The notes under the pieces are model-generated. The model saw only the letters and a list, made by a program, of their open reading frames with translations. It made no database searches and had not been told where the DNA came from. Of a DNA stretch of 54,968 nt, positions 1-42,129 are shown one piece after another. Made by a program: the position numbers and the translations under genes. This DNA is from a virus (lineage: Duplodnaviria > Caudoviricetes): the IMG/VR virus record IMGVR_UViG_3300020201_000026, positions 1-54,968 of that record; one strand, given 5' to 3'. How positions within the stretch are numbered: position 1 is the stretch's first letter; the number at the start of each line of letters is the position of its first letter.

Positions 1-32
1 CGCGTTTTTTTTGTTATTTGTCCTTTTTTCAT
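1..32 (-). CDS. N-terminus of a gene truncated by the window edge; paralog of 4584-4886
   Basis: ATG at 32-30 reads MKKGQITKKT, matching KKGQITKKT near the start of ORF 4584-4886. It has the A-rich leader typical of this arm. Confidence 0.65.
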   Translation of the reverse strand, partial: MKKGQITKKT

Positions 33-61
33 TTGTTTGGTTTAAAGGGTTAATAAAATAT

Positions 62-517
62 CTATGAAAGATACGGGTTTACGAACAAGCTACTAAAAGT
101 AACATATGACCCGTTTTCTAACCTAAACACGACTATATCGTCTTTTACAGTTAAAAATGTCGCTTTCATTTCAACAATTTTATTCCACACGCTGTCAATC
201 ATCTCAAGCGTAGGAAAATACTTGAAAGACAACAAGTGCTTTTGTCCGTTTTGTTCGCACAAGTCCCATTCAACATCGTATTTGTGGGCATGTTGAATCT
301 TCAACACTTCCCACGAATCGCTGTGTGCCTTGTCGGTCATTCCTCTGGTGTATCTTCCAAACGGAATCAAAACTTGGGTTATTGTGTTTGCCTTAGTGTT
401 GTCATAATTTATTTCAATGACCCCATAAGGTTTTTTGTAGTGAAGTCCTCTAATGGTTATTTTTGGACAGGTTCTTTCTCCGTCCAACACCCATTTTGAA
501 CTTAATATGTTTGTCAT
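62..517 (-). CDS. hypothetical protein (151 aa)
   Basis: ORF with leader TTTAAACCAATTAAAAAATG, co-oriented with the arm; no motif recognised. Confidence 0.75.
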   Translation of the reverse strand: MTNILSSKWVLDGERTCPKITIRGLHYKKPYGVIEINYDNTKANTITQVLIPFGRYTRGMTDKAHSDSWEVLKIQHAHKYDVEWDLCEQNGQKHLLSFKYFPTLEMIDSVWNKIVEMKATFLTVKDDIVVFRLENGSYVTFSSLFVNPYLS

Positions 518-540
518 TTTTTAATTGGTTTAAATGTAAA

Positions 541-568
541 TAAGCAGTTTACACTCTTGCTTAGGAGT
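541..568 (-). ncRNA. small H-type pseudoknot, copy 1 of 3
   Basis: Minus strand ACUC-C-UAAGCA-A-GAGU-GUAAAC-UGCUUA. Stem ACUC/GAGU; loop UAAGCA pairs with UGCUUA. The stem covaries with copies at 8794 and 9133. Confidence 0.6.
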
Positions 569-626
569 TGTTTTAAACCTCTTTATAAAAGCGGTTTAAA
601 ACGTAATAGGTGAGGACAATACTATA

Positions 627-962
627 CTACCTATTACTGTATTTTCTCCAATTGTATAGTTGTGGGGCAAGTAAGTGGTAGCAATATTTAGCCACCGCCC
701 AAGTGTCTTTTTTCCAATTGTATTTTTCTTTGTCAAGTAATCTTGAACAGAACTGAGCTACATAACAGGAGTTTTCCTCCCAATCAAAGCAGTTGTTTTC
801 AATCTGCCAAGCTATTAAATCATAGCTTGAATGTGCATACAACCACGCGTATTGTTGCCCGTGTTCAATGAACGCTAAGTGGACATTTAACTTTCCATTT
901 TCAAATCGCAATCGCCATTCATCACAAGGCACTGTTGTTAGGTTTTCTAATTCAATTATCAT
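627..962 (-). CDS. hypothetical protein (111 aa)
   Basis: ORF with A-rich leader; aromatic-rich; no motif recognised. Confidence 0.75.
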   Translation of the reverse strand: MIIELENLTTVPCDEWRLRFENGKLNVHLAFIEHGQQYAWLYAHSSYDLIAWQIENNCFDWEENSCYVAQFCSRLLDKEKYNWKKDTWAVAKYCYHLLAPQLYNWRKYSNR

Positions 963-1024
963 GTTTTTGTTTTTTGGGTTAAAAATTAATAAAATAGGGC
1001 TTACTTAAAAGCAAACCCTATCAG

Positions 1025-3844
1025 TTATCCTAACATTGCCTGACGAAGCATCACTGCTAAATCAGATTCAGACTCTGTTTCGTCTTTTCTGTCTTCAATT
1101 AGTTGGTTAAGCAACCTGACAGCTTGCACGTGAAATACATACATACTCAAAGAGCTATCAAACTCCTTTAACACGTCTTCAAGGGCTTCACAAAGAAGGC
1201 TTTGTTTTGCGGTTAAAGAGCGGTAGTCTATCTCATCAAGATATGCGTTTATCTCACCAATGGAGTGTTCAAACTCTTGGCAATAGTAGAAGTCTAACGC
1301 CATAGTTTTTAAACTCTCCTTTTCTGACTCAGCAATATCCCTTTGGTCAGTCTTTCTCCAGTAAAAGGCATCTTTTTCTTGTGCTATGTACTTATACACA
1401 TCAGCACTTAACAAAGAATTGTACTCCACTGTAAAAGAGTCAATTAGTTCTTCAACAGACAACTTGAAATCTACTTTTACGCAGGCTTTGTAGCTGTTTA
1501 TCACTAATCTTTCTTTTTCTATTTCCTCCTGCTTTTTTTCATTAGCGACATAGTCGTAATACAGCTGAGATAACTCAGTGTGAGACAGAACACCTTGTCC
1601 TTTATAACAATAAAAGACAACAACCCCTCCTAATTCTAAAGGAAGAGTGAGAAAGTTAGACAAAGAACTAACTGCAAGCAATATCCTTTCTGCTGAGTAT
1701 GACACAGAACTACCTTTGTAGCTGTCTGGTAGTATCTCGTTAACAAAGGAGTAGTGCTTTTTAATATCCTCAATAGATTTCTCTAAAGATTCAATTATCA
1801 GCTCTTTTTGTGATTCTACACTGGCAAAAGTAGGCACAGTTTTAATAACTAATACCACTTTATCTTCTCCTAACAATTCAAGTTTGGTATTAACCACTTT
1901 GATTTGGGATTGATAGTTAGGTAAATAGATACTGCTCACTGCTTTTGCGTGAATCTCCTCTGTTGTTAAAGGAGTAGAAATCCTCATTTCAGCGTTGCCC
2001 ATTGCATATACCGTAACAGTTTCACTATCAGCGTTAAACACTCTTTCTTTAGTGAATAAAGAAGGGTCAAGCTTGTAAACAAGCGCAACTACTGCCTCGT
2101 TAAAATACGTAACGTTAGTAAGAAAAGTAGCTCTTCCAATACTTGTTACTGTACCTGTTGTGTAGGAGAAATAACTCCCTTCAGAAGCAGCCGACACTTT
2201 CGTATCAAATGCTACCCTGTATGCTTTACAGCCTTTAGCTGCAACCACAACAACGGAACACAATTGCTCAGTTACTTGCTGAGTGTCTGTCATATACCCT
2301 AATTGGCTTAGAATAATAGACAGCTTTCTGTATCCCTCAAGGGCTTCTTGCTCCGCCATATAAAAAGTCATTGACTCTTTTGCTTGGCGTACTTCTTTGT
2401 TGTTCTTTTTAGCCACGATGCTGTCGTACAACTTTATATTGGCGTAAGAAGTAGACACAAACTTTGAAAAAAACTTGTTAGTTTTATCTTCGTCTGCTTT
2501 TTTGTCTATGACTGTTCCAAATTTAGTGTACGCCTCAATGGCAAGAAACTTTGCAACTTCTTTGGCGATGCCAAGTTCCATTGCATAATAGAGAATTAGA
2601 GCTTGGTTATACTCTAACATCGTCAATAGAGGAGCAATCCTTTTACCTTTTACAGTAAAACTATTGTTGCTTTCTATTACGTCATTTGCACGAAGCTCTT
2701 CAAGAACCTCGTTGTACTCCATTTGGTTATATGGAGTTATCAGATTTTCGTTATCTACACCTTGTGATAAAGTGTTAACAACAAACTCTCTTGCGTCCAA
2801 CAAGTCAATGGCTCTTAATGGATACTGTTGACGAGAATCGTAAGAACCTATAAGAGTGTATTTGTAAGGCATAGAACCTTGTTCAAGTTGCATTCTTCCA
2901 ATACGCCCAGCAGCTTGCGCCACCTCAGCTTTTGAAACGCTGTAAGTAGTCAATTGCTTGACTCCTTTAACGTTTACCATATGTCGTATTTGACCTAAGT
3001 CAATCACAGACTTTATCCATTTAGGATACGTTAAGCCTGTACGACCTATGTTAGTTGCAATGATAACAGCTTGTCCTTCTTTATGCTGGAGATAAGCCAT
3101 ACGGTCTTTACTGTCCATTTCACCGTGCATAAGATACACAGTTACTTTAGATGAAGCCTTAGTCGCATATGCTTCAACAATAGCTTGTACTTCAGCTATC
3201 TCCTTCTTTCCAGGACAGATAACTATGAAGTTGTACCCTTCTTCAAGTCTTGTATTGACAGTTGAAGTTAGGTTTTGAGAAGTTATCACACTCCCAAACA
3301 CAGGCGAGCCTTCTACACTGAAGCTTGTAGTAGTAGCTTCCACTACATTACAGTTTAGATAAGAAGCAAACATTGTACCTTGCACAGTCGCAGACATAAT
3401 CAAGACTTTACAGCCTAATTCTCTTGCTTTGTACAAGTTGATAATAGTGTTAAGCTCTAATTCGTGAGCTTCATCTATTACCACTAAAGTAGATGACATA
3501 TCCTCTTTGCCTAATTTAGACGTGAGGATTCCTTCGGTCATATACACAACAGAAGCATTAGCATTGCTGCTTGTACCTCTTCCTGTGATATGCCCTATCA
3601 TATCGGGTTGTCCACAGCCTTCAATAGCTGTAGCAGAGTTGCTTTCTGCTTGGCTAATGCGTGGCTGCGAGACATACACTTTGCTTATACCCTCTACGGC
3701 AGTCAGCAAGTGCAGTGGCAAGTATATGGTCTTACCTGTCCCTGTAGGACTTGTAAGAACACATCTGCCAACAGTGTTGAGCTGAGAGGCAATGCTCTCG
3801 GCATAACGAGCTATAGGCAGCTCTTTAAACCATTTTTTCTCCAT
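1025..3844 (-). CDS. DEAH/RHA-family (HrpA/HrpB-like) SF2 helicase with long C-terminal extension
   Basis: Motifs in order: I SPTGTGKT, Ia SQPRI, Ib TEGIL, II DEAHE, III SAT, IV PGKKEI, V ATNIGRTGLT, VI QAAGRIGR. Confidence 0.9.
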   Translation of the reverse strand: MEKKWFKELPIARYAESIASQLNTVGRCVLTSPTGTGKTIYLPLHLLTAVEGISKVYVSQPRISQAESNSATAIEGCGQPDMIGHITGRGTSSNANASVVYMTEGILTSKLGKEDMSSTLVVIDEAHELELNTIINLYKARELGCKVLIMSATVQGTMFASYLNCNVVEATTTSFSVEGSPVFGSVITSQNLTSTVNTRLEEGYNFIVICPGKKEIAEVQAIVEAYATKASSKVTVYLMHGEMDSKDRMAYLQHKEGQAVIIATNIGRTGLTYPKWIKSVIDLGQIRHMVNVKGVKQLTTYSVSKAEVAQAAGRIGRMQLEQGSMPYKYTLIGSYDSRQQYPLRAIDLLDAREFVVNTLSQGVDNENLITPYNQMEYNEVLEELRANDVIESNNSFTVKGKRIAPLLTMLEYNQALILYYAMELGIAKEVAKFLAIEAYTKFGTVIDKKADEDKTNKFFSKFVSTSYANIKLYDSIVAKKNNKEVRQAKESMTFYMAEQEALEGYRKLSIILSQLGYMTDTQQVTEQLCSVVVVAAKGCKAYRVAFDTKVSAASEGSYFSYTTGTVTSIGRATFLTNVTYFNEAVVALVYKLDPSLFTKERVFNADSETVTVYAMGNAEMRISTPLTTEEIHAKAVSSIYLPNYQSQIKVVNTKLELLGEDKVVLVIKTVPTFASVESQKELIIESLEKSIEDIKKHYSFVNEILPDSYKGSSVSYSAERILLAVSSLSNFLTLPLELGGVVVFYCYKGQGVLSHTELSQLYYDYVANEKKQEEIEKERLVINSYKACVKVDFKLSVEELIDSFTVEYNSLLSADVYKYIAQEKDAFYWRKTDQRDIAESEKESLKTMALDFYYCQEFEHSIGEINAYLDEIDYRSLTAKQSLLCEALEDVLKEFDSSLSMYVFHVQAVRLLNQLIEDRKDETESESDLAVMLRQAMLG

Positions 3845-3867
3845 TGTTTTATGTTTTTAAAGGTTTG

Positions 3868-3919
3868 TGAATAAGATTGGATTTGAACCAATTCTCCATA
3901 GGAGCAACCTTGCTTATTC
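3868..3919 (-). ncRNA. 52-nt tRNA-like element lacking a D-stem and anticodon loop
   Basis: Minus strand: acceptor GAAUAAG/CUUAUUC plus discriminator A; T-arm AUUGG-UUCAAAU-CCAAU; linker CAAGGUUG containing GG; mini hairpin CUCC-UAU-GGAG. Confidence 0.7.
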
Positions 3920-3924
3920 AATAA

Positions 3925-3953
3925 AAGTAGGGGCTACAAGAAGCAACCCCTTA
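3925..3953 (-). terminator. post-stop hairpin (terminator or processing site)
   Basis: Minus strand GGGGUUGC-UUCUU-GUAGCCCC followed by UACUUUU, just after the stop of 3957-4379. A similar hairpin lies at ~993-1020. Confidence 0.45.
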
Positions 3954-3956
3954 TAA

Positions 3957-4379
3957 CTAAAACATCTCTCTCCACTGTACGTGTTGAAAGACCGTTGTTT
4001 TGGTAACACTCCCGTCGGGGTTTACCAGCTCAACGGACTTTCTTTCGGTGGTTGACTGAATGCACACAAGAGAGGTATGTGCGTTTTTGTAGTGGGCATA
4101 CAAGTTAGCCCACATTGTCAGGGTAGGCTCACCTGTGCAATAAAAGTGAGTTGCCTCTTCCATTATTGCTTCTGAGACTATCCTCAGAGCAAGCAACTGT
4201 ATTTCTTCTAAAGTTGCTGTTGCTGAAATGGCTGACATTTGAGCTTGCAACTCAGGGTCTACCTCTTTCAAGGTAACAATTGAGTCTTCGTGGTCTTTGC
4301 CAAATTGCGAGTTAAATCCTTCAACTTGAGACTCTGTCAAAACGTGGCTAAACGCGACAAATAACTTCTTGTTTTTCAT
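3957..4379 (-). CDS. csx20: Csx20-like CARF-related protein, putative ring nuclease / anti-CRISPR
   Basis: N-terminal LFVAFSHVLTESQ, central G-E-P-T-L-T, and C-terminal STTERKSVE...DGSVTKTTVFQHVQWR match my recollection of the Csx20 pattern (FSHxLTxxQ ... STTxR ... K.s.F.HvrFR). Confidence 0.75.
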   Translation of the reverse strand: MKNKKLFVAFSHVLTESQVEGFNSQFGKDHEDSIVTLKEVDPELQAQMSAISATATLEEIQLLALRIVSEAIMEEATHFYCTGEPTLTMWANLYAHYKNAHTSLVCIQSTTERKSVELVNPDGSVTKTTVFQHVQWREMF

Positions 4380-4510
4380 ACTTTTATTTTTAAAGGTTTT
4401 AGCAACGATGCACCTTTATCCATTTGTTTCGCACACCCGTCCTGTGTGCTACATCTACCTCGTAGATGAGTTTATAAAGGGTTAGATACAACCTTTATAA
4501 ACTGACTTTG

Positions 4511-4542
4511 CAAAGTTAGTGAAATAACTTCGCATTTGCAAA
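4511..4542 (-). promoter_or_regulatory. Bacteroidota housekeeping-sigma promoter driving csx20-like and helicase genes
   Basis: Minus strand TTTG (4542-4539), 20-nt spacer, TAACTTTG (4518-4511): the -33/-7 consensus TTTG-N19-21-TAnnTTTG. It sits just downstream of a terminator. Confidence 0.75.
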
Positions 4543-4549
4543 CAAATTA

Positions 4550-4580
4550 AAAAGCCTTCCAATTAAATCGGAAGGCTTTT
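4550..4580. terminator. intrinsic terminator (bidirectional-looking)
   Basis: AAAAGCCTTCC-N9-GGAAGGCTTTT perfect inverted repeat 3 nt after the stop of 4584-4886. A related hairpin lies at 9710-9737. Confidence 0.75.
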
Positions 4581-4583
4581 GGG

Positions 4584-4886
4584 TTAAAATGTTGCTAAGT
4601 AAGCTCTCCTTGCCACAGATTCATTCAAGTTTAACCATACGAGGTACTCCTCGTTGGTCATGTCTTGAATGAAGATATATTTTATGCAACTTCTTGCCCC
4701 ACGAGAGCCATAATACGCTTCTTTTACTTCACTTGTGTCTTGTAGCCAATGGCTAAGGGGAGTCTCCTTAGATGTGGAGCAATTAAGCTCCAATAAATCA
4801 CTGAGATACAATTTACCTATTGACCCACTTCTGCGAATTGGGTAATTTGTTTTTTTTGTTATTTGCCCTTTTTTTGACTTTGTCAT
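4584..4886 (-). CDS. hypothetical protein (100 aa)
   Basis: ORF; N-terminus shared with the truncated gene at 1-32. Confidence 0.75.
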   Translation of the reverse strand: MTKSKKGQITKKTNYPIRRSGSIGKLYLSDLLELNCSTSKETPLSHWLQDTSEVKEAYYGSRGARSCIKYIFIQDMTNEEYLVWLNLNESVARRAYLATF

Positions 4887-4930
4887 ACGTTTAAATTGTT
4901 TAAATTGTTAATAAAAAACAGTACGTTTAA

Positions 4931-4970
4931 AAAACTCTTATCAACAGTATGTCTTGGTTGATAAGAATTT
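4931..4970 (-). terminator. hairpin with U-tail after 4975-5487
   Basis: Minus strand AAAAUUCUUAUCAAC-loop-GUUGAUAAGAGUUUUU, with a G-U wobble only on the minus strand. Confidence 0.55.
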
Positions 4971-4974
4971 TGAA

Positions 4975-5487
4975 TTATTTTGTGAGGAGAAAATGACTGT
5001 TTGCTTGTGTTTTGTATAACACAAAACAGTCATTTGCCGCTAAGGCTGTCCCTGAATTGCTCCCTTTCTCCTCAATAAAATATTGGCGAGTTTCAAAGAA
5101 CACAAGGGTATCTTCTCCTTCTTTTTGAAAGACTTGGAGCATTTGTCCTTTGTCAGTCCCTACTTGGTCTTCCCAATCCTTTCTACAAGATAAGCCCTCG
5201 TAGATATGTTGGTTTATGTGATGAAACTCACACGCCATTGGCAGTGTGATTTCTTTTCTGTTTACCAAAAATGTCTCTGGATTGATTTCAAAGGACACCT
5301 TGTATTCGTATGGACTACCCTCCGAGTAGTCGTCCTTTGCAGAAATCTCATACGGCTCTGAGTTACTCGCAAACCCAATAACTAGTTCGTCGTGATAGCT
5401 TACACTTGCCATTAAGTGCTTGCCGCCCTCAATGAGGGTCTCGCCTGTTATGGCGTTTTTTATTAAAATTTCCGTGAAGTTTGACAT
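4975..5487 (-). CDS. hypothetical acidic protein (170 aa)
   Basis: ORF; no motif recognised. Confidence 0.75.
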   Translation of the reverse strand: MSNFTEILIKNAITGETLIEGGKHLMASVSYHDELVIGFASNSEPYEISAKDDYSEGSPYEYKVSFEINPETFLVNRKEITLPMACEFHHINQHIYEGLSCRKDWEDQVGTDKGQMLQVFQKEGEDTLVFFETRQYFIEEKGSNSGTALAANDCFVLYKTQANSHFLLTK

Positions 5488-5497
5488 TGTTTTTGGA

Positions 5498-5545
5498 TTT
5501 AGGGTTTAGGGTTTAGGGTTTAGGGTTTAGGGTTTAGGGTTTAGG
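5498..5545 (+). repeat. (TTTAGGG)6 + TTTAGG tandem repeat
   Basis: Read directly; lies 10 nt upstream of the ATG of the minus-strand gene 4975-5487. Confidence 0.95.
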
Positions 5546-5610
5546 CTACGATTAAGAAAAAGGCTCTTTAATTTAATTGTAGAACCCTTTTCTAATTTAA
5601 TTTTAGCGCA

Positions 5611-5982
5611 CTATACTATTGAAAACCTGCTGATGTACAGGTTTTCTTCTTGGTCTTGGTCTTCGTCTTCAAGAACCCATTCGTGGGCTATGGTTTTGAT
5701 GCGTGGGAATCTTGCGATTCTTCCACACTCAACTCCAAAAACGTACAACTCAATAGTGCATTGAGCTGTCAAGTCTACTCTCAACCCACCATATTGGACG
5801 GCATACGCCCAGTTTATATTTGTTTCTAACAGAAACAAGGCAACCTCATATTGCACTTGTTCTGTGATTGGTGTGAACTTGTTAATCCCTCCATAAATGG
5901 AGTTTTTTAACTGTTCTACCATTTCTTCCTTTTCTTCTTGGTCAGCAGAGTTGTAATTTCTGCTGAATTCATAATTGTCCAT
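5611..5982 (-). CDS. hypothetical protein, paralog of 9747-10133
   Basis: YEVALFLLETNINWAYAVQYGGLRV aligns with WEIAFCLLKASPEWAYAVQFGKLNV. Confidence 0.8.
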   Translation of the reverse strand: MDNYEFSRNYNSADQEEKEEMVEQLKNSIYGGINKFTPITEQVQYEVALFLLETNINWAYAVQYGGLRVDLTAQCTIELYVFGVECGRIARFPRIKTIAHEWVLEDEDQDQEENLYISRFSIV

Positions 5983-6009
5983 AGTTTTTTGTTTTGTTTA
6001 ATGGTTTAA

Positions 6010-6041
6010 TAAAACAGGACTTACATCTTACGACTGCCTGT
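6010..6041 (-). repeat. 32-nt intergenic hairpin repeat, copy 1 of 3
   Basis: TAAAACAGGACTTACATCTTACGACTGCCTGT; near-identical copies at 6705-6736 and 7875-7906. Confidence 0.9.
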
Positions 6042-6050
6042 TGTTAGTTT

Positions 6051-6680
6051 TTAGATAGACTTCAGCATTTCTGCGAGTTTCTCTAACGTTTGAAGTCTTT
6101 CCGATACTACGGATTGAGCAGCGTAGATGACGGATTTCAACGCACTTGGCAGGGAGGTTACGGCATGAGGGGTCATGTCATAGTCCCCGAATAAAACACC
6201 AAGAGCAACCTCGTAAGGGAGCTTTGTAAAGTCTTCCCCTCCAAAACCGTTAAAGATGTTAGCCAAAGATACTCGCTCCATTTCTTCTCCATTGATTTTT
6301 GCAGAGGTTACTATTTCCCCTGAAACTATCCTTTCAGCAACCGTTTTGCAAACGAATGCAAAAAGGTTGAGTTCACCTCCATAACAATCACTGTCGTCTG
6401 CCAAATGGTTTTCAATAGCAACATTATTAATGGTTATTGTTGCTACTTCTACTACGCTGTACTTTTCCCCCCAAAAACTTGCTTGTGCGAGACTTGCAAG
6501 CATGGGTTGTCCGTTAGGGTTGAATAACCCCTCTATAATAGTTTGCGACAAAACTACATCACTGTTTATTGCCGCTTGTGTCTTGGTCTTTGCCATTAAA
6601 ACAAAAGCTGTTGCTTCTGCTTCGGTGGGGAAGAAGTACTCATTTGTTTTTTGAGTACGTTGGTTTTTGATAGTGAACAT
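6051..6680 (-). CDS. hypothetical protein, tandem paralog of 6740-7360
   Basis: Aligns end to end with the neighbouring gene (MFxIKN..KTNEYFF, NGxPMxAxL, LPYxVAxGVLFGDY, RLQTLExLAxMLKSI). Confidence 0.85.
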   Translation of the reverse strand: MFTIKNQRTQKTNEYFFPTEAEATAFVLMAKTKTQAAINSDVVLSQTIIEGLFNPNGQPMLASLAQASFWGEKYSVVEVATITINNVAIENHLADDSDCYGGELNLFAFVCKTVAERIVSGEIVTSAKINGEEMERVSLANIFNGFGGEDFTKLPYEVALGVLFGDYDMTPHAVTSLPSALKSVIYAAQSVVSERLQTLEKLAEMLKSI

Positions 6681-6704
6681 TTTTTTACTTGTTTAAAAGG
6701 TTAA

Positions 6705-6736
6705 TAAAACAGGACTTACATCTTGCGACTGCCTGT
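6705..6736 (-). repeat. 32-nt intergenic hairpin repeat, copy 2 of 3
   Basis: TAAAACAGGACTTACATCTTGCGACTGCCTGT. Confidence 0.9.
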
Positions 6737-6739
6737 GTG

Positions 6740-7360
6740 TTAAATAGATTTTAGCATTTTTGCTAAATCTTCTAACGTTTGAAGTCTTTGCGATACTACT
6801 CTTTGAGCGGCGTAAAAGATTGATTCCAATGCGCTTTTCAATGCCATTGCTGGGTGAGATTTTGTTTTGTAATCTCCAAACAAAACCCCACAGGCAACGC
6901 TGTAAGGAAGCTTTGTGGGGTCTTCCTCCCCAAAGTCGTTAAAGATACTTATGAGCGAAACCCGCTCTTTTTCCTCTCCGTTCACTTGAACGGAAATGAC
7001 ACTCTCCCCCAATATTATCATTTCTTGAACTTTTTTTGAAATAAAATCAGAGAGCTTTCCCCCCAAAAATTCGCCACTGTCGTCCGCCAAGTCGTTGTCA
7101 ATGGCAACTCCATTGATAAGCACCTTTGCACTTTCAATGACTTCGTATTTTTGCTCCAAAAACGAAGCTTTTTCAAGGAACGCCGACATTGGCTTTCCAT
7201 TAGGGTGGAACACCCCTTGCACTATTTCACTCACGTCCCCTCTGTCAATGACAGATTGTGTTTTTTCTTTTGCCATTACGAGAAAAGCGGTAGCTTCTTC
7301 GGCAGTTGCAAAAAAATACTCGTTGGTCTTTCCTGACCGTTTGTTTTTTATACTAAACAT
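6740..7360 (-). CDS. hypothetical protein, tandem paralog of 6051-6680
   Basis: Aligns end to end with 6051-6680. Confidence 0.85.
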   Translation of the reverse strand: MFSIKNKRSGKTNEYFFATAEEATAFLVMAKEKTQSVIDRGDVSEIVQGVFHPNGKPMSAFLEKASFLEQKYEVIESAKVLINGVAIDNDLADDSGEFLGGKLSDFISKKVQEMIILGESVISVQVNGEEKERVSLISIFNDFGEEDPTKLPYSVACGVLFGDYKTKSHPAMALKSALESIFYAAQRVVSQRLQTLEDLAKMLKSI

Positions 7361-7412
7361 AGTGTTTTTTTGTTTAAAAGGCTTAATAAAATAGCACGTT
7401 TATCTTAAACGT

Positions 7413-7866
7413 ACAAATAAACACTAAAACCACGAGCAATCTTGGCTCTCTGGTTGCAACACCAAACTCACACACGGTGAGGAACTATGTGTGGTCTTAG
7501 GGTTTAAGGTAGGTTTGAGCCTATAACTTTCTTGCTGTTACACAAGCCTGCTCAAACAGGATTAAGTTTTGCTAAACTTACAAAATAACATTGGACAACT
7601 TTCATTTAGCTAAATGAAGGCTTATGTTGTCCCAATGCCTCTTATCGGTCAATTACAAAATGATAGATTCTAATTCTTGACCTTTTACAGTCCCCCGTTC
7701 ATTACTCGGGCTATTTCGGAGAATAGCAAAAAACAGACGAGGCTTATGAAGCATTTTCGTGTCTGTCTTACTCCTTACTCAGTTCTAACGTATCTATCAC
7801 AGTTAGAACATATATGCACACCTGTCTTACAGGATTCAACGCTTGCATAATGCGTTATTTATTTGT
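7413..7866 (-). ncRNA. candidate large (~450 nt) structured ncRNA
   Basis: No ORF >=60 aa; termini complementary (ACAAATAAA/TTTATTTGT); at least 8 internal hairpins; two candidate loop-loop pseudoknots. Confidence 0.6.
7445..7488 (-). repeat. 44-nt repeat (two-hairpin / three-way junction module), copy 1 of 2
   Basis: Matches 8571-8614 at 43 of 44 positions; the single difference is in a hairpin loop. Confidence 0.9.
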
Positions 7867-7874
7867 TTATGAGA

Positions 7875-7906
7875 TAAAACAGGACTTACATCTTGCGAAT
7901 GCCTGT
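7875..7906 (-). repeat. 32-nt intergenic hairpin repeat, copy 3 of 3
   Basis: TAAAACAGGACTTACATCTTGCGAATGCCTGT. Confidence 0.9.
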
Positions 7907-7908
7907 TG

Positions 7909-8433
7909 TTACTTGATTTGGTGGGTTTTACACCACCCTGATTTTTTTATTGCCAAAAGGCGTAAGTAATCGGAAGAGTAGGGGTTGTCATATCCTGACG
8001 ACCACTGGTCGTCATACCCTGAGGCCCAATGAGAGTTCCTCGTGAAAGAGAAACCCAATGCCAAACTCTTTAGAATCTTTAAATGTTCCTCTCTGTCAAA
8101 AGAGGTTATTACCTGTAAGCGGTCGCAATGCAGTGAGATTTCAGCCTCCAATTTGCTGGTGCAGGAGCTTCCTTTCCAGCTATGACCCCAGCTAATCATG
8201 CCACTCCATTTTTTAAATCGTTCCGCCCATTTCTTGCAGAACGGTTCCCAGCCAGTGGCTTTGGTCTTCCCAGAAACACAAACAGTCGTCCCCGACGATA
8301 GGTTGTACGTAATGGTAACCTTGTACCGCTCTTTGTTGCGGTATAAAGTTGCAATATGATATTCAATGTACGAGATTGAATTTCGTACATTGACAGTCGC
8401 TACGGGCGTTGCAAATAATTGGATTGCTATCAT
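7909..8433 (-). CDS. hypothetical protein (174 aa, Trp/Ser-rich)
   Basis: ORF with AACAAAAAATG leader. Confidence 0.75.
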   Translation of the reverse strand: MIAIQLFATPVATVNVRNSISYIEYHIATLYRNKERYKVTITYNLSSGTTVCVSGKTKATGWEPFCKKWAERFKKWSGMISWGHSWKGSSCTSKLEAEISLHCDRLQVITSFDREEHLKILKSLALGFSFTRNSHWASGYDDQWSSGYDNPYSSDYLRLLAIKKSGWCKTHQIK

Positions 8434-8570
8434 TTTTTGTTCTGCTTACTCAATGCAGAAACACTCTGTCTTTGTCCCGAACGGGAAACAGGTGTTAGCA
8501 GTTTCTCGTAAATTCTACGAGGAAGATTTAGAGTTTTCTCTCTTTTGTTATCTACCGTACAATAATCACA

Positions 8571-8614
8571 GCTCTCTGGTTGCAACACCAAACTCACACC
8601 CGGTGAGGAACTAT
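8571..8614 (-). repeat. 44-nt repeat, copy 2 of 2
   Basis: GCTCTCTGGTTGCAACACCAAACTCACACCCGGTGAGGAACTAT. Confidence 0.9.
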
Positions 8615-8712
8615 ACTATACACTGCAAAAATGCAACATCACACCTAAGCCGAAGCTCTCCCTTTAGATTTTTCAGGGATTAAGGTGCCAACCTCCTAAG
8701 AGGTATTTAAAT

Positions 8713-8821
8713 ACGTCTTTCTTGTTCTTTCACTGTCGCATTAACCCCCGTAGGAGAAAAGACGTTGCAACAGCGAGAGGTTTTTCCTCTATCAAAGCAG
8801 TTTATAGTCCTGCTTAGGACT
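8713..8821 (-). ncRNA. ~110-nt structured repeat (small pseudoknot + hairpin + nested pseudoknot), copy 1 of 2
   Basis: Direct repeat of 9050-9160 with compensatory changes in two stems. Confidence 0.7.
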
Positions 8822-8835
8822 TGCTCTTATCGGGG

Positions 8836-9021
8836 TTAATCCCAATAAGAGCTATGACCCCCTTTTCCATACGCTGCCATACGACAGCCGGGATTTCTTT
8901 TTATTGCAGCCCTTGAGGTCTTTGCAGGGCTTTTCTTTTTGGGACGACAAGCTTTTCTCCTGCCCATTGCTTGACGAGGGTGAAAGTCATTCTTGTCTTC
9001 CACAATCTCGTGGATTTTCAT
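8836..9021 (-). CDS. small basic hypothetical protein (61 aa)
   Basis: K/R-rich ORF with the arm-typical leader TAACCTTAAAAC...ATG, flanked by the 110-nt repeats. Confidence 0.6.
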   Translation of the reverse strand: MKIHEIVEDKNDFHPRQAMGRRKACRPKKKSPAKTSRAAIKRNPGCRMAAYGKGGHSSYWD

Positions 9022-9049
9022 GATGTCTTGTGTTTTAAGGTTAAATAAT

Positions 9050-9160
9050 GCACTTTTCTTGTTCTTTCACTGTCGCATTAACTTCCGTAGAAGAAAAAGT
9101 GCTGCAACAATTAGAGGTTTATTTCCCCTATCAAAGCAGTTTATAGTCCTGCTTAGGACT
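9050..9160 (-). ncRNA. ~110-nt structured repeat, copy 2 of 2
   Basis: Direct repeat of 8713-8821 with compensatory stem changes. Confidence 0.7.
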
Positions 9161-9174
9161 TTTGACGATTAATC

Positions 9175-9606
9175 CTACAGGGCTTTAACCCAGTACTCCA
9201 TTGAACTTAACCATGTAACACACATCATTGGACTAAGTTCCTCCGCCAGCGATGTCCAATCAGGGGCATACTGATTGTCCCCTTTTGTGGGGTAGCCCAG
9301 TTGGGCATACCCGTACAAATATGTCCACATTTGAAGTCGCACGTCCTCAAAAGAGCAGTAAAGGTGGGTTGCCCCCACTTTTGTTGCCTCTTTCACGATT
9401 TCAAGAGCCAAAGCTTTCACTTGTACAAGTGCGAGCTTGGCACTTTCTGTGTCAAATCCTATCATGGTTGCAATTTCTGTACCCTCGTACCCTTGAGCAT
9501 CTTCATGGTGGCAACCATTGATATGGCTGCCGTACTGTAAGCGGAACATGTCCTCTTGGCGAGGGGTCAATACAGTTTGAGACGCTACGAATAATATCTT
9601 TTTCAT
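9175..9606 (-). CDS. divergent paralog of the Csx20-like protein
   Basis: LFVASQTVLTPRQ vs LFVAFSHVLTESQ; LALEIVKEA..GATHLYC vs LALRIVSEA..EATHFYC; LQMWTYLY vs LTMWANLY. The C-terminal STT/HV segment is lost. Confidence 0.7.
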   Translation of the reverse strand: MKKILFVASQTVLTPRQEDMFRLQYGSHINGCHHEDAQGYEGTEIATMIGFDTESAKLALVQVKALALEIVKEATKVGATHLYCSFEDVRLQMWTYLYGYAQLGYPTKGDNQYAPDWTSLAEELSPMMCVTWLSSMEYWVKAL

Positions 9607-9629
9607 ATTTTTATTTATTTAAGGTTTAT

Positions 9630-9707
9630 TTTCTTGCGAACCACCGCTTGCTCTATGTTTCCATAGACTTGTGAGACTCTCGTATTCCGAAGAACTTAGA
9701 GGTAGTT
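9630..9707 (-). ncRNA. GAAA-tetraloop / 11-nt-receptor RNA element, copy 1 of 2
   Basis: Receptor variant UCUAAG/UACGA capped by UUCG; hairpin UCUAUG-GAAA-CAUAGA; closing stem AACUAC/GUGGUU. Aligns without gaps to 10160-10237. Confidence 0.7.
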
Positions 9708-9709
9708 GT

Positions 9710-9737
9710 AAAAGCCCCCCAGTTAATCGGAGGGCTT
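9710..9737 (-). terminator. probable intrinsic terminator
   Basis: AAGCCC...GGGCUUUU hairpin after the stop of 9747-10133; resembles 4550-4580. Confidence 0.6.
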
Positions 9738-9746
9738 GTTGTTACT

Positions 9747-10133
9747 TTATTTGAGGAAGAATGTGTTTTCTACTACTTCGTCGCCGAAGTAATCTCGTTC
9801 GTCCCCTGTGTAAGGGACGGTTTTAGAGGTACAACCAATTGACGTTGTAGGAAACTTAATGTCCCCTAAATCCACTCCGCAAGTTGACAGCGAAACTACT
9901 CCGTTCTTTCCTATATACACGTTCAATTTGCCGAATTGAACAGCATACGCCCATTCTGGCGACGCTTTCAATAGGCAAAACGCTATTTCCCACTTGATGT
10001 CGTAGGATATTATGTCAAAATGTCCGTTTGCCATTTTCAGCGATTTGGCAAGGCTTTTAGCCATCTTGCCTCTTTCTGTAACTGTGCCGTATACGAAACG
10101 GCTTGTGTATACGTCTTTTTTTGAAACTTTCAT
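9747..10133 (-). CDS. hypothetical protein, paralog of 5611-5982
   Basis: Shared WAYAVQ(F/Y)G core. Confidence 0.8.
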   Translation of the reverse strand: MKVSKKDVYTSRFVYGTVTERGKMAKSLAKSLKMANGHFDIISYDIKWEIAFCLLKASPEWAYAVQFGKLNVYIGKNGVVSLSTCGVDLGDIKFPTTSIGCTSKTVPYTGDERDYFGDEVVENTFFLK

Positions 10134-10159
10134 AATACTTATTTATTTATTGAGTTTAA

Positions 10160-10237
10160 TTTCTTGCGAACTACCGCTTGCATTACTTTTCAGTAACCTT
10201 GTGAGACTCCCATATCCTACTGGACTTAGGGGAAACC
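10160..10237 (-). ncRNA. GAAA-tetraloop / 11-nt-receptor RNA element, copy 2 of 2
   Basis: Canonical receptor CCUAAG/UAUGG; hairpin GUUACU-GAAA-AGUAAU. Confidence 0.7.
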
Positions 10238-10293
10238 GATTGTATATGTACCTCAACGCCGAAATCCCAATGACGGATTCGTGTGAGAAACAA

Positions 10294-10389
10294 GAAATAG
10301 TTACATACTGTATGGGTATGTAGCTATTTCATTAGTTACGTGTACGGTTAAACACGTAACATATACCCTAAACTTTTAATTTAGGGTAT
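10294..10389. repeat. three consecutive inverted repeats
   Basis: GAAATAGTTACATAC/GTATGTAGCTATTTC, GTTACGTGT/ACACGTAAC and ATACCCTAAA/TTTAGGGTAT. Confidence 0.85.
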
Positions 10390-10394
10390 TGTTT

Positions 10395-11063
10395 TTATTT
10401 TGGCACACTTGCCGTGTTTGCTAATTTAGCTTGTTCTTTTGCTAATTTAGCTTGTTCTTTTGCCTCATCTTTGGTTTTTTCTGTGTTGTTTTCTTTTGTA
10501 ACCGCAATAGGGGCAATAAAGCCTCCTATTGCCCAAAATAGGCTCTTTGATGACTTTTCTTGCCACACTGTGTTCTCCCGTACAGTTGCAAGTTGTTCGT
10601 GGTAGCTAATACCAACCTTCATTAATGAAGGAATAGCGTTAGCAATGTTCAAATACTTTGTACCTGAACTTGTTGTAACCAAAACGGTCTCCATGTCGCA
10701 TGTTACACCCTCTAATAGGGTAGCAACATTTTTGATTGAAACGTTGATAAGTTCGTTGCCTCTTGTGAAGCAACCAACCGTGAGTGAAAGTACTGCAACC
10801 GCAGTAAAATCACTCTTAACGAGCGCGTTGTTTGCAACCTCTATGGTAGCAATTGATAGTTTCTTTTCTATCAATTTTGTGTCATACGCATTGTCTACTT
10901 CACTGTGTGTGAAGTTAGATAAGACACTGCCTTCTAAGAGGTAGTGCCTTTTAATGGGTATGATAAACTCCGACGTGGCACGTAGTGCCAAATTAGAGGG
11001 TATTAATCTATCAACCATTGGTATAGGGCTATTTTGTAAACGGTTGCACGGTTGCAGTCGCAT
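10395..11063 (-). CDS. hypothetical protein, first gene of the left arm; start uncertain (ATG 11063, ATG 11018 or TTG 10874)
   Basis: Open frame with a C-terminal 21-bp tandem repeat (AKEQAKL x2). The 5' part is hairpin-rich, and TTG 10874 has the A-rich context typical of this arm. Confidence 0.6.
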   Translation of the reverse strand: MRLQPCNRLQNSPIPMVDRLIPSNLALRATSEFIIPIKRHYLLEGSVLSNFTHSEVDNAYDTKLIEKKLSIATIEVANNALVKSDFTAVAVLSLTVGCFTRGNELINVSIKNVATLLEGVTCDMETVLVTTSSGTKYLNIANAIPSLMKVGISYHEQLATVRENTVWQEKSSKSLFWAIGGFIAPIAVTKENNTEKTKDEAKEQAKLAKEQAKLANTASVPK

Positions 11064-11668
11064 ATAGCCAAAGGCAGGAGGGGTGAATAGACATCAGACT
11101 CAATACTCCTTCTTAAAAAAATATTTTTTTTGCTGGGGTCAGTTGTCATTTTGCCTTGTGTGTTAGTTTGCTGTGTGTTAGTTTTACTGTAGAGGGGGGT
11201 ATTTGAGGGGGTGTTGTTTTATGTTTTTCTTTGGGTGGTTTCTTTGGCTATGGTATTATAGTTATAAGCTCTATCAAGGGGCAAGCCCCTTAAAAAGTTG
11301 TTTTTGGAGTACCTGATCCAGTCCTTTTTTGGGGAGAGTGTAGTATCTTTTGTTTAATGTGGAGATAGACACGTTCCACTACAATATAAATAAGGGTATG
11401 CTTTTACTGCAAAATGTTTATGCGGATTATCAGCCAGAGCTTCGTATCAGAACCTTATGAAAGAGGATGCGAAGATGTTTATGCCTTTAGCACTGAAGGA
11501 TTACCGCAAGAGGGGAGTTTCAACCGCCCATTTTGTTGCCCTTTTATCTTAATACCTTTCGTTGCCAAAAGGTAACCGAGAATCTAAAAAAGAATCGTTA
11601 TATATATAACTTATTTTTGACATAAAAGGTTCAGTTATTTTGAAAATAAATTAAAAATATTTTTTATT

Positions 11669-11700
11669 TTTGGTAGTATCGTTTTGTTGTGTTATATTTG
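11669..11700 (+). promoter_or_regulatory. Bacteroidota-type promoter for the tRNA / right arm
   Basis: TTTG (11669-72), 20-nt spacer, TATATTTG (11693-700), 8 nt before the tRNA. Confidence 0.75.
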
Positions 11701-11708
11701 CACAACAA

Positions 11709-11781
11709 GTCCTTATAGCTTAACTGGAAAAGCGTTACCCTTCTAAGGTAAGGAGTACAAGTTCAAATCTTGTTAGGGACA
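11709..11781 (+). tRNA. tRNA-Arg(TCT)
   Basis: Acceptor GTCCTTA/TAGGGAC+A; D-arm GCTT/AAGC; anticodon arm TTACC-CTTCTAA-GGTAA; T-arm ACAAG-TTCAAAT-CTTGT; CCA not encoded. Confidence 0.92.
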
Positions 11782-11796
11782 CTAATAGATTATAAT

Positions 11797-12552
11797 ATGA
11801 AAAGGAAGGACGATGTTTCGTTTGATGCTGTTACGCATTCCTATTTCAACACGGATACGGGAGTGGAGTACACTCCTGTTACGTCTTGGATAGCGAAGCA
11901 CAAGAGGGAGTTTGTTGCAGATGAGAGCAAGACCAGAGCAACTCAGAGGAAGCTTGGCTTAACTCACGAGGAGGTTCTTTCTATGTGGGAGGACAAGAAG
12001 AACAAGGCAGGACAGAGGGGGTCGTATATCCACAACACTATTGAGGACTACTTGGTTTCTGGTAGGGTAGACATGGGGTATAATCCTTTAAACAAGGACA
12101 TACCTTTTACTTATTTAAAAATGCTTAGAAGGAAAAGAGCTAAACTGTGGATAGAGGATATGCTCTGGTACAAGCAGAGGGGGATAGCTGGTCAGAGTGA
12201 TTTGGTGTTGGAGTACAAGAGGCACGTTGAAATAACAGACTGGAAGACCAATGAGAAAGAAACGGAGGCACTATCAAAAGTAATGTGGTACACTGAGAAC
12301 TTCAAGGAGTTGTTTGTAGACCTTCCCCAGACTTCTTTAAACGAGTATGTTATACAGCTTGTGTTATATGGCATAATGGCGAGTTATTATTACGGCAAGC
12401 CTTGTAGGAAGCATACGGTGGTACACATCTTTAACGGGTATAGGGAGATACACCTTGACAAGTTGAAAATGGAATACTACAATGGGCGAGGGCAAAAGAT
12501 AAAAACAACAGTGGTAGCATACGTCAAGAAGAAACTAAAACCTTTATTTTAA
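11797..12552 (+). CDS. PD-(D/E)XK (RecB/Cas4-like) nuclease
   Basis: Motifs GSYIH..IE, IAGQSDLV, ITDWKT, Y..QL..Y. ATG 11797 chosen because TTG 11770 lies inside the tRNA. Confidence 0.85.
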   Translation: MKRKDDVSFDAVTHSYFNTDTGVEYTPVTSWIAKHKREFVADESKTRATQRKLGLTHEEVLSMWEDKKNKAGQRGSYIHNTIEDYLVSGRVDMGYNPLNKDIPFTYLKMLRRKRAKLWIEDMLWYKQRGIAGQSDLVLEYKRHVEITDWKTNEKETEALSKVMWYTENFKELFVDLPQTSLNEYVIQLVLYGIMASYYYGKPCRKHTVVHIFNGYREIHLDKLKMEYYNGRGQKIKTTVVAYVKKKLKPLF

Positions 12553-34352: not shown

Positions 34353-36535
34353 GCAAGAAGATAAAAATGTTCCAGCGAGGAGGACTCTTAAACAGAATAG
34401 GAAGAGGCGTGTCTACTGTTGGCAACTACGTAGGGGATAATGTCAAAGGGGCGTTTGGACAAGGCATCATAGGAAACGATAGAAACAACTATGACTATGC
34501 CAACACTGCCGATAGAGCAACCTCTTATGACGGCTTGCAATACGTGCCACAAGCTCCTGTCTCCCCTTTCTTAGCAGCGTATCAAAGCAGATACAGTGCA
34601 AAAAACTTTTATGACCCAGCTAAACACACTATGGACACTTCCGCTTTTGAGAAAGACCTCAAAACATACCATATTGACAAAGAAGGGTGGATGAGCAGAA
34701 AGGAAGCGGCAACAGCAGAAATAGCAGCGTATATTGCATTACACAACACAGACGAACAAATGATGGCTCAACTGCCAATGTTTATTGTGCAACAGAAAGA
34801 CAAGCTCACAAGGGACACACAAGGGTTAGTAAACACTTATGATGAAAACCAAACAGCATATAAAAAATATGTAAGTGAAGGAAAGCACGGGATACAATAC
34901 CGCGACAATGGAGAAAGCTATTTCACAAGAACAGAGAAGCAATTGGTAAACGGAGTAGAAAAAAATGTTAGAATAGTAAGACCACAGTCAGAAATATTAA
35001 ATCGTTTAGGAAGCCTAAGTGGCTGGAAGGCAGCAACTCCAAGAGACCTACAGGAAAGCTACGAGTACATAAACCCAGAAAACCCTCTTCACTCCAAAAA
35101 GATGATGGTCAATCTTAACGACAGAGACACTGCCCTTACGAGAATGCAAGCCTACTTTAAAGATGCAGAAACAAACAGCAAAGCAGAAGCTATAGCAGGG
35201 TCATACCGCCAAGCAAACATAGGGGGATACAACTCAGACATGGTTATATTCCATAACACTTCTTCAAAAGTAATAAATGAAAACAACTTCAAACAAATAG
35301 AAGAGGCAACTAAAGAAATAAACCAATTAGACCCTGTTATTAGAGACGGGTTAATGAGTGCTTTTTACTCAGAGATGAAAGCTATAATAAATGTCCCAGT
35401 GTATGACAAAGACGGAAATGCAATAACAACAGAAGAGAACGGAGTAAAAGGAGTAAAACTTCAAGCAACAAAGATTGAAGACATGAACAATGCTCAGTTG
35501 GCATTTGCCCAAAGTGCGTATATAGCAAATGCTATAATCAGAAGAGCAGCAGTTAATACAACGGAGAAAACCGACCAAAACAAAAGTTCTTCCGTAAATA
35601 TGGCAGCCATTGTTCACGGGGCTGGAAGTGGAGCAGCGTTATTAGAAAAACAAAAAAGGGATAGAGTAACAGACCTTTCAGACATGGTTGAAAACGGGCA
35701 AAAAGTACGAACTGCCGACACTATCGCCGCAAGATTGTTTGGGCAAGATTTTACAAAAAGATTTGGAGAAAACTCTGTGTGGCAAGTTAAAAAACCCTTA
35801 CTCAAAAGTGCCTCAACGGGGGCAACAATAACGGAAGATATAATTGGAAGCGCAGCAATAACATGGGACGGGACTATACTTAACAAAAACGGGATTAAAC
35901 TTGTATTAACGAAAGACGGAAAAAGAGTAGAAGGCAATGACATAACTAAAAACGTGCATCGTTTGGGGCAAAATATTATGACTACTACTGTTTATACAGA
36001 CGAATCAGGAGAGGAAATAAACTATAGCGACAAGATGTATGCTGTAATTCAAGCGGCTATAAGCGGAAATGAAAAAGCGAGAGAGGCATTGAAAGAACAT
36101 GGTATTAAAACACAACAAATAACAGGAATGGAAGTTTACGCTTTAAAGATGGGAGAAATAGGGACAACCATAAAAGGAGGGGTAATTATACCAAACAGTT
36201 CTACTGAAGGGCAAGAAATACTAAAACAACAGTTAGCCCTACACTCCTATTTAGGACCTACTCACGCATCAGTTGTAGCTCTTAAAGGGGCATTGACAGG
36301 AGACAGTGGTTCTACAGTTGTGCTTACAAGAGATTTCTTAACAGGAAAAACTCCCCCTTTATCTACCTATTTTGGAAGTGGTACTCTGTTTACCGACAAC
36401 AACAACGCAACTCTATACCCCACTGAAGAACAAGGAGTTATTCCTAAACGACAAGAGGGAGGAACAATACAACAACAAATCACTCTGCAACAACAAAACA
36501 CCCTGCCAGATATAACCTTAGACGATTTATACTAA
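34349..36535 (+). CDS. internal virion cargo protein
   Basis: MFQRGG at the N-terminus and RQEGG near the C-terminus; lies in the cargo block. Confidence 0.6.
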   Translation: MSKKIKMFQRGGLLNRIGRGVSTVGNYVGDNVKGAFGQGIIGNDRNNYDYANTADRATSYDGLQYVPQAPVSPFLAAYQSRYSAKNFYDPAKHTMDTSAFEKDLKTYHIDKEGWMSRKEAATAEIAAYIALHNTDEQMMAQLPMFIVQQKDKLTRDTQGLVNTYDENQTAYKKYVSEGKHGIQYRDNGESYFTRTEKQLVNGVEKNVRIVRPQSEILNRLGSLSGWKAATPRDLQESYEYINPENPLHSKKMMVNLNDRDTALTRMQAYFKDAETNSKAEAIAGSYRQANIGGYNSDMVIFHNTSSKVINENNFKQIEEATKEINQLDPVIRDGLMSAFYSEMKAIINVPVYDKDGNAITTEENGVKGVKLQATKIEDMNNAQLAFAQSAYIANAIIRRAAVNTTEKTDQNKSSSVNMAAIVHGAGSGAALLEKQKRDRVTDLSDMVENGQKVRTADTIAARLFGQDFTKRFGENSVWQVKKPLLKSASTGATITEDIIGSAAITWDGTILNKNGIKLVLTKDGKRVEGNDITKNVHRLGQNIMTTTVYTDESGEEINYSDKMYAVIQAAISGNEKAREALKEHGIKTQQITGMEVYALKMGEIGTTIKGGVIIPNSSTEGQEILKQQLALHSYLGPTHASVVALKGALTGDSGSTVVLTRDFLTGKTPPLSTYFGSGTLFTDNNNATLYPTEEQGVIPKRQEGGTIQQQITLQQQNTLPDITLDDLY

Positions 36536-42126: not shown

Positions 42127-42129
42127 AAA

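Follow-up and report, generated by a model that had tools for sequence, protein, structure and literature searches.

A divergent Csx20-like protein in a distant crAss-like phage, a candidate anti-CRISPR ring nuclease

We have found in a phage fragment a gene which codes for a protein of 140 amino acids. Judged from sequence profiles, its likeness to the Csx20 family is real and covers its full length. The protein belongs to a new, divergent clade of Csx20, mainly viral or metagenomic, which lies below the cut-offs used for annotation. We consider it rather probable that it is a phage ring nuclease, which would destroy the cyclic tetra-adenylate (cA4) of host type III CRISPR systems and would thus act as an anti-CRISPR. 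The DNA analysed, which we will call the window, is the whole stretch of 54,968 nt of IMG/VR virus record IMGVR_UViG_3300020201_000026. The positions of its main features are given in Table 1.

Ring nucleases are a known viral route to blinding type III CRISPR signalling; to our knowledge AcrIII-1 was the only one recognised in this viral role until recently. In the mechanism which we propose, host RNA polymerase would transcribe the csx20-like gene from the gene's own promoter and the CARF-like protein would assemble as a symmetric dimer. This dimer would bind cA4, which the Cas10 protein of a host type III CRISPR system would make on detecting phage RNA, and would cut it into linear products. 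The cA4-dependent effectors (Csx1, Card1/Can2 and others) would then stay off. Such an action would be like that of AcrIII-1, from a different fold family. If the protein is active, it would stand for a second widespread viral family of ring nucleases, it would be a compact candidate for structural and inhibitor work, and crAss-like phages would seem to be under real pressure from type III signalling. The clade, missed by standard cut-offs, sits in uncultivated phages, among them the distant crAss-like one described here.

Table 1. Features of the csx20-like locus and of its paralogue in the window
Feature	Position	Strand	Description
DEAD/Helicase_C helicase gene	1025-3844		939 aa
Terminator-like hairpin	3929-3951	minus	directly past the csx20-like stop, ahead of the helicase gene
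csx20-like ORF	3957-4379	minus	140 aa, ATG start; probably CARF-like, Csx20 family (MJ1673/PF27247), predicted ring nuclease
Upstream ORF	4376-4423	minus	15 codons; its stop overlaps the csx20-like start codon (ATGA)
Structured 5' leader	4391-4503	minus	three clear hairpins and a weaker fourth
Leader hairpin 1	4503-4469	minus	clear
Leader hairpin 2	4468-4452	minus	clear
Leader hairpin 3	4449-4431	minus	clear
Leader hairpin 4	4418-4391	minus	weaker
Bacteroidota-type promoter match	4511-4542	minus	TTTG, 20-nt spacer, TAACTTTG
Terminator-like hairpin	4550-4580	minus	14 pairs, then a T-rich tail; ends the upstream 100-aa ORF (4584-4886)
csx20-like paralogue	9175-9606	minus	143 aa, divergent, conserved motifs lost

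A sequence-only reading of the window had called the protein Csx20-like from its motifs, and the name stood when the protein was compared with profiles. The NCBIfam model CAS_Csx20 (NF040559) matches it with E 3.2e-10 and 40.4 bits, over profile positions 1-123 of 124. This score is below the curated equivalog cut-off of 70 bits, which is a naming threshold for equivalent function and not a structural feature. Ten representatives taken across the family score from 44.7 to 144.4 bits on the same model, three of them above the cut-off and seven below: the family is a continuum, with the window protein in its divergent part. The PADLOC models also give full-length matches, with E 3.8e-11 and 1.7e-09 for Csx20 and 2.1e-08 for Csx15/20. 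Pfam family PF27247, the MJ1673 family in the protein atlas, is assigned to the protein in the precomputed column; our local copy of Pfam gave DUF5315 alone, at chance level, and PHROGs gave no match. In the reverse direction profile A1, which represents the clade of the window, scores two cellular Csx20 at 106.0 bits (L007) and 61.4 bits (L006). Both are above the NCBIfam cut-off, with 88.1 and 153.6 bits respectively.

The likeness to cellular Csx20 is thus apparent in reciprocal profile matches, in a similar size (124 profile positions and 140 aa), in the predicted dimer and in a series of motifs: H after strand 1, G-E/D after the third strand, TT.R, DG, K and F.HV.[WF]R. The window gene differs from the cellular ones by being in a phage and not beside cas genes, by belonging to a separate clade and by its score under 70 bits.

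A word-indexed search gave 60 relatives at E<=0.001 out of 69 candidates; PF27247 is found on 55 of these 60, and several of them sit on contigs of 50-136 kb. An exhaustive search of 1.84 billion representatives gave 154 proteins at E<=0.001, 82 at E<=1e-10 and 14 at E<=1e-30. Conservation is strong across the 60 relatives and the motifs are invariant; relatives have variable insertions. Viral members make up 82-100% of four of the six nearest clusters which the protein atlas shows. We have built a FastTree tree with 160 rows, namely the proteins of 105-270 aa up to P0165 and two locus proteins; it omits P0166-P0190 and all shorter or longer proteins, its sampling leans towards the query, and it has no root. 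On one side of a branch with support 91 are 25 rows, both canonical Csx20 among them; on the other are 135 rows, among them the window protein. About a third of the residues of the window protein are identical in the two canonical Csx20, an estimate made by eye in the columns of the window protein only. The clade of the window has its own signatures: FSH, ATH.., GEP and W136. It differs from the canonical side at several well-conserved positions, S11 (N), S109 (A) and W136 (F), and by the ATH motif which precedes the third strand.

The positions conserved on both sides of this split are 17: H12, Q18, G83, E84, P85, T110, T111, R113, E117, D122, G123, K127, F131, H133, V134, W136 and R137. The window protein keeps all of them, which describes conservation across the family and is not equivalent to an intact active site. 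This result bears on the alternative that the protein would bind a cyclic oligoadenylate without cutting it, acting as a sponge which sequesters the signal. Such a role has a precedent in Csx15, a member of the same broad CARF-like group: it shows almost no nuclease activity and its authors raise a sponge role (PMC12409355). Binding and cleavage are inseparable by sequence alone, and the paralogue described below is a case of the fold in use without the conserved residues. However, the positions kept include those common to the cellular Csx20 of the active-enzyme family, whereas in a pure binder one would expect some of these to have been relaxed. We regard a sponge as quite unlikely and prefer a protein which would cut its ligand.

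The nature of this ligand is suggested by the cellular enzymes. The sequence-only reading named an activity of Csx20 on cA4 and this is confirmed in print: Hoikkala et al. found that Csx20 degrades cA4 fully, and cA3 fully only with 10-fold more enzyme (PMC12409355). Among the ring nucleases of type III loci Csx20 was the commonest, with 78 loci (PMC12409355). The activity on cA3 leaves room for another substrate, either cA3 from a type III or CBASS system or a different cyclic oligonucleotide, so that the phage would counter a defence which does not use cA4. The substitutions of the viral clade given above, its ATH motif and the variable insertions of the relatives might also be read in this way. 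On the other side, the residues common to the whole family are unchanged, and the known ring-nuclease families co-occur only with cA4 effectors in the published survey (PMC12409355). We consider a substrate other than cA4 unlikely.

The AlphaFold2 model of the protein has a pLDDT of 93.8 and a pTM of 0.85, with five strands and flanking helices. The SH motif is found after strand 1 and GEP after the third strand. In CARF proteins the ligand-binding loops are those after the first and fourth strands; in the model the position of GEP would correspond to them approximately. Foldseek gave one clear match, a viral protein of 128 aa in BFVD (E 4e-08, TM 0.78/0.85). Against the PDB there was none at E<=0.001 among 1121 matches at E<=10, and the nearest CARF protein was a Csm6 at rank 14 (E 0.1). 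The published likeness between Csx20 and Crn1 is therefore not reproduced in this search of the PDB. A search by sequence among solved structures gave a best E of 0.25, which leaves no solved relative.

A homodimer is also predicted. When it was modelled as the sequence-only reading had proposed, the dimer passed with a score of 0.82, compared with 0.00 for the best of three controls, and it was symmetric. Contacts agreed at 100% between runs and the partner pLDDT was at least 86. In the calibration of the dimer tool 20 of 30 solved homodimers and one of 23 solved single chains came up to the mark; these counts apply only roughly, since a custom alignment was used and two AMP molecules were included. 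The predicted interface (residues 82-86, 110-112, 134-135 and 137-140) includes conserved residues.

The principle of a Csx20 encoded by phages is already in print and our gene is a further, divergent example of it. Csx20 is reported in 4 of 28,114 phage genomes (PMC12409355), and the shared point is a phage which has a gene of the Csx20 family but no type III locus. Among cultured phages we found relatives in four Fusobacterium phages of 175-180 kb, JD-Fnp1, 4, 6 and 7, which match the mid-family protein P0057 at 28-35% identity; our guess is that these are the four reported genomes. None of them matches the window protein at E<=0.01. A 2026 paper on Csx15 states that ring nucleases of viruses and plasmids can serve as anti-CRISPRs (PMC13148439). 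AcrIII-1 (Crn2, DUF1874) resembles our protein in the proposed job, that of a small dimeric viral enzyme which destroys cA4; as the sequence-only reading had it, the family is a different one, and no Pfam DUF1874 match to the 140-aa protein is present at E up to 10. The literature searched yielded no biochemical or genetic test of a phage Csx20, and its titles and abstracts yielded none on a crAss-like phage with Csx20. What is new here, besides the clade, is the crAss-like carrier, a motif-lost paralogue with one orthologue and a leader hairpin common to one other locus.

The window is a virus record with an estimated completeness of 33%, and it has matches to terminase, portal, major head and structural proteins. 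Its terminase is 26-28% identical to those of Crassvirales, and the hosts named among the 87 matching records are mostly Bacteroidota. It is a fragment of a distant crAss-like phage, with a probable host in Bacteroidota. The absence of cas genes and of an array, noted from the first inspection, holds for what we searched: with the Csm1 model, the one cas model run, there is no Csm1/Cas10 in the record at E<=0.01, and the window has no array-like spaced repeats, its four families of short direct repeats being all tandem or coding. A fragment of 55 kb without Cas10 or array is as expected for an anti-CRISPR copy of the gene.

The surroundings of the gene are poor in recognisable functions. Ten neighbouring small ORFs in the left arm have no Pfam or PHROG annotation, except for one match at chance level, and the ten ORFs which flank the relatives in contigs L002-L004 gave no Pfam match above chance. 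A 2026 paper reports acr operons in which a csx20 homologue is accompanied by the RHH regulator Aca14, and proposes that phages have co-opted csx20 (PMC13551039). Our gene is like them in being a csx20 homologue in the counter-defence setting of a mobile element, a proposed co-opted cas gene. There the co-encoded Aca14 binds an inverted repeat in the promoter (PMC13551039); in the window we detected no HTH or RHH regulator of this kind beside the gene by Pfam or PHROGs, which very divergent ones could escape.

An uninformative neighbourhood and the lack of an adjoining Aca-like regulator are what one might find if the protein had a role outside defence, for example as a nucleotide-binding regulator of phage development, or if the gene were a decaying passenger. 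A relative (L005) and the paralogue in the window show that copies do decay. Against this stand the 60 strongly conserved relatives with their invariant motifs, and a gene with an intact frame, its own terminators and a confident predicted fold. We find such a role, or a passenger, very unlikely and continue with the anti-CRISPR ring nuclease as the preferred reading.

The clade of the window is present in three other IMG/VR contigs, all of them incomplete (46-76%). The window helicase has no match in any of the three; its terminase has none in two of them and a weak partial one in the third (27% over 158 residues). When the window is compared with these loci, extended matches come from the csx20-like gene only. 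Such a pattern is that of a horizontally exchanged accessory gene. With a narrower mid-family alignment we have confirmed 64 IMG/VR loci out of 99 pattern matches, only one of which (the already known contig L003) scores over 100 bits with the profile of the window clade. In 185,579 species genomes a single-pattern scan led to one confirmed relative, which is degenerate and lies on a contig of 3.7 kb; in metagenome contigs a scan led to eight, all on contigs of about 3 kb or shorter. Among the INPHARED phages there was no DNA match to positions 1-12000 of the window and no tblastn match for the protein. The gene had been taken at first for a captured host off-switch. A recent capture is not borne out, since the clade is large, divergent and almost only viral or metagenomic; on the unrooted tree the transfer may have gone in either direction.

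The target which we propose exists in the likely host phylum. We have sampled 401 genomes of the phylum of G001, a Bernardetiaceae MAG and hence Bacteroidota. Csm1/Cas10 is above the cut-off in 42 of them, about one tenth of the sample, and at E<=1e-10 in 54. The Csx20 model gives 21 matches in these genomes; for 13 of them the same contig has a Csm1-model match at no more than 20 kb, and for nine of the 13 the Cas10 is above the cut-off. In G001 itself Cas10, a Card1 CARF nuclease and Csx20 are found within 8 kb of one another. This proximity of Cas10 and Csx20 indicates that cA4 signalling with a ring-nuclease off-switch is present in the phylum. Not every Bacteroidota host would be a target, since in gut Bacteroides the common type III-B system uses SAM-AMP as its signal and not cA4 (PMC10600005).

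The csx20-like gene is a self-contained cassette on the minus strand, 4580-3929, with a terminator, a promoter match, a leader, the ORF and a second terminator in this order. The first hairpin, predicted from its pairing and T-rich tail, insulates the cassette from the ORF upstream. Terminator-like sites are frequent in this part of the window: positions 1-12000 have 32 of them, compared with 9.8 +/- 3.2 in shuffled sequences. The promoter-like site which the sequence-only reading had placed about 130 nt upstream is present: the match has the form TTTG-N20-TAACTTTG, which we take to be the Bacteroidota -33/-7 consensus, and the end of its -7 box is 132 nt upstream of the ATG. Over the whole window the pattern is no commoner than by chance: there are six matches against 3.81 +/- 2.26 expected, with at least six in 22 of 100 shuffles. 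Its weight therefore comes from placement and orientation alone, immediately behind a terminator-like hairpin. The pattern also occurs at 11669-11700 on the plus strand, where it ends 8 nt before the tRNA-Arg at 11709, the only tRNA gene of the window; this would suit a phage in which a few stand-alone genes are read from host-type promoters. Judged by its consensus match, the csx20-like gene may be expressed immediately by host RNA polymerase. The relatives in L003 and L004 lie directly behind small ORFs, so that an own promoter is no trait of the family.

The leader had been described as having three hairpins and we find these three clearly, with a weaker fourth which pairs with an A-rich stretch just ahead of the start codon. 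The leader of about 130 nt at 4506-4377 (minus strand) folds at -35.4 kcal/mol, compared with -22.2 +/- 3.5 for shuffled sequences; the z-score is -3.81 and none of 200 shuffles was as good. No Rfam family reaches its gathering score in the leader. The 15-codon ORF upstream of the gene has no counterpart seen in the upstream sequence of L021 and may be a chance occurrence.

Hairpin 1 recurs upstream of the gene of a relative in L022, just past a tRNA-Met gene. The loop and inner stem are alike at 20 of 21 positions, the difference being a C/T (Y) position. Both sides have changed in 4 of the 11 pairs, with pairing kept in all 22 cells. The covariation is weak, as only two sequences are compared: 25 of 500 shuffles were equally good. 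With its loop kept and its outer stem variable, this inverted repeat is more readily explained as an RNA element than as an operator. We also considered whether hairpin 1 is the mimic of a CRISPR repeat, an RNA anti-CRISPR, and rejected it, as we saw no clustered array-like matches. Its core, with up to three mismatches, is found in 74 of the 401 sampled genomes on scattered contigs, at most five times per genome and at about the rate of a reversed-pattern control. An exact 19-mer of hairpin 1 in seven IMG/VR contigs turned out to be the same coding stretch without the hairpin flanks, a chance match.

The window has a second gene of the same fold. Its product is 37% identical to the csx20-like protein over 107 aa (E 4e-13), and the clade profile matches it with an hhalign probability of 98.3. 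The SH after strand 1 is replaced, GEP has become FED, and the C-terminal block STTER / DG / HVQWR is also replaced. In the predicted model the N-terminal 100 residues have a pLDDT of about 90 and the C-terminus is poor. It has one orthologue, P0192, which is 66% identical and has identical losses; the change is thus conserved and is not fresh decay. P0192 was not found in IMG/VR.

The two genes might form a two-part system with a single fold, an active nuclease and a motif-dead partner, in which the conserved leader hairpin gates the nuclease. A ring nuclease of Csx20 type would be expressed from a host-type promoter and the paralogue would be its non-catalytic partner, either as a sponge for another signal or as a heterodimerising subunit which tunes the nuclease; the leader hairpin, with an identical loop and an outer stem covarying in a second phage locus, would be the regulatory element. 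We see this as hardly likely. The motif-dead paralogue and the covarying hairpin are small leads on how such genes may be regulated or repurposed.

Some other observations in the window and in the loci of the relatives will be added. Several relatives, known as proteins only, have the C-terminal hairpin collapsed to a few residues. This is the case for P0054, P0091 and P0055; the first two have also lost the SH motif, which P0055 retains. Shortened or motif-lost versions of the Csx20-like fold thus recur in other metagenomic sequences. The 98 nt upstream of the paralogue are repeated at 10135-10232, before the next ORF, with 71% identity.

The left arm contains a repeated intergenic module at 965-1021, 5985-6041, 6680-6736, 7362-7418 and 7850-7906, and also at 32-60 and 4890-4918. 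On the minus strand it has a hairpin followed by a TTTTATTAA...TTTAAAC motif. It is found directly before the start codons of 5 of the 13 leftward genes examined (starts 962, 4886, 5982, 6680 and 7360) and could be a promoter or terminator unit specific to the phage. At the csx20-like gene the TTTTATTAA part of the module is absent. A tandem repeat with a 7-nt unit (TTTAGGG on the plus strand) occupies the intergenic positions 5491-5545, upstream of a 170-aa ORF at 4975-5487. A stretch of 26 nt at 4-29 is 96% identical to 4849-4874; these are the first codons of the gene truncated at the left end and of the 100-aa ORF, which suggests that both are a paralogous pair. The adjacent ORFs at 6051-6680 and 6740-7360 (minus strand), with 209 and 206 aa, have similar 3' ends and similar downstream modules. 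They are probably tandem paralogues; no family was found for either.

At the other end of the window (36535-54956, plus strand) there are three very large ORFs of 1863, 844 and 3430 aa. An AAA_30/AAA_19 domain occupies residues 1278-1426 of the first; Pfam gave no match for the 3430-aa ORF and PHROGs none for the 844-aa ORF. In size they resemble the giant virion proteins of crAss-like phages. In L023 the sequence upstream of the csx20-like gene ends, by eye, in an apparent tRNA 3' end, where ARAGORN called no tRNA; in L022 the tRNA-Met gene which the csx20-like gene follows is at 663-736. Contig L002, a viral contig of 130 kb, has a stretch of 1.36 kb without any ORF of at least 60 aa upstream of its csx20-like gene. 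About 1.2 kb downstream of the gene, at 5796-5863 on the plus strand, it has a match to the type-P3 twister ribozyme with 49 bits (gathering score 39.9).
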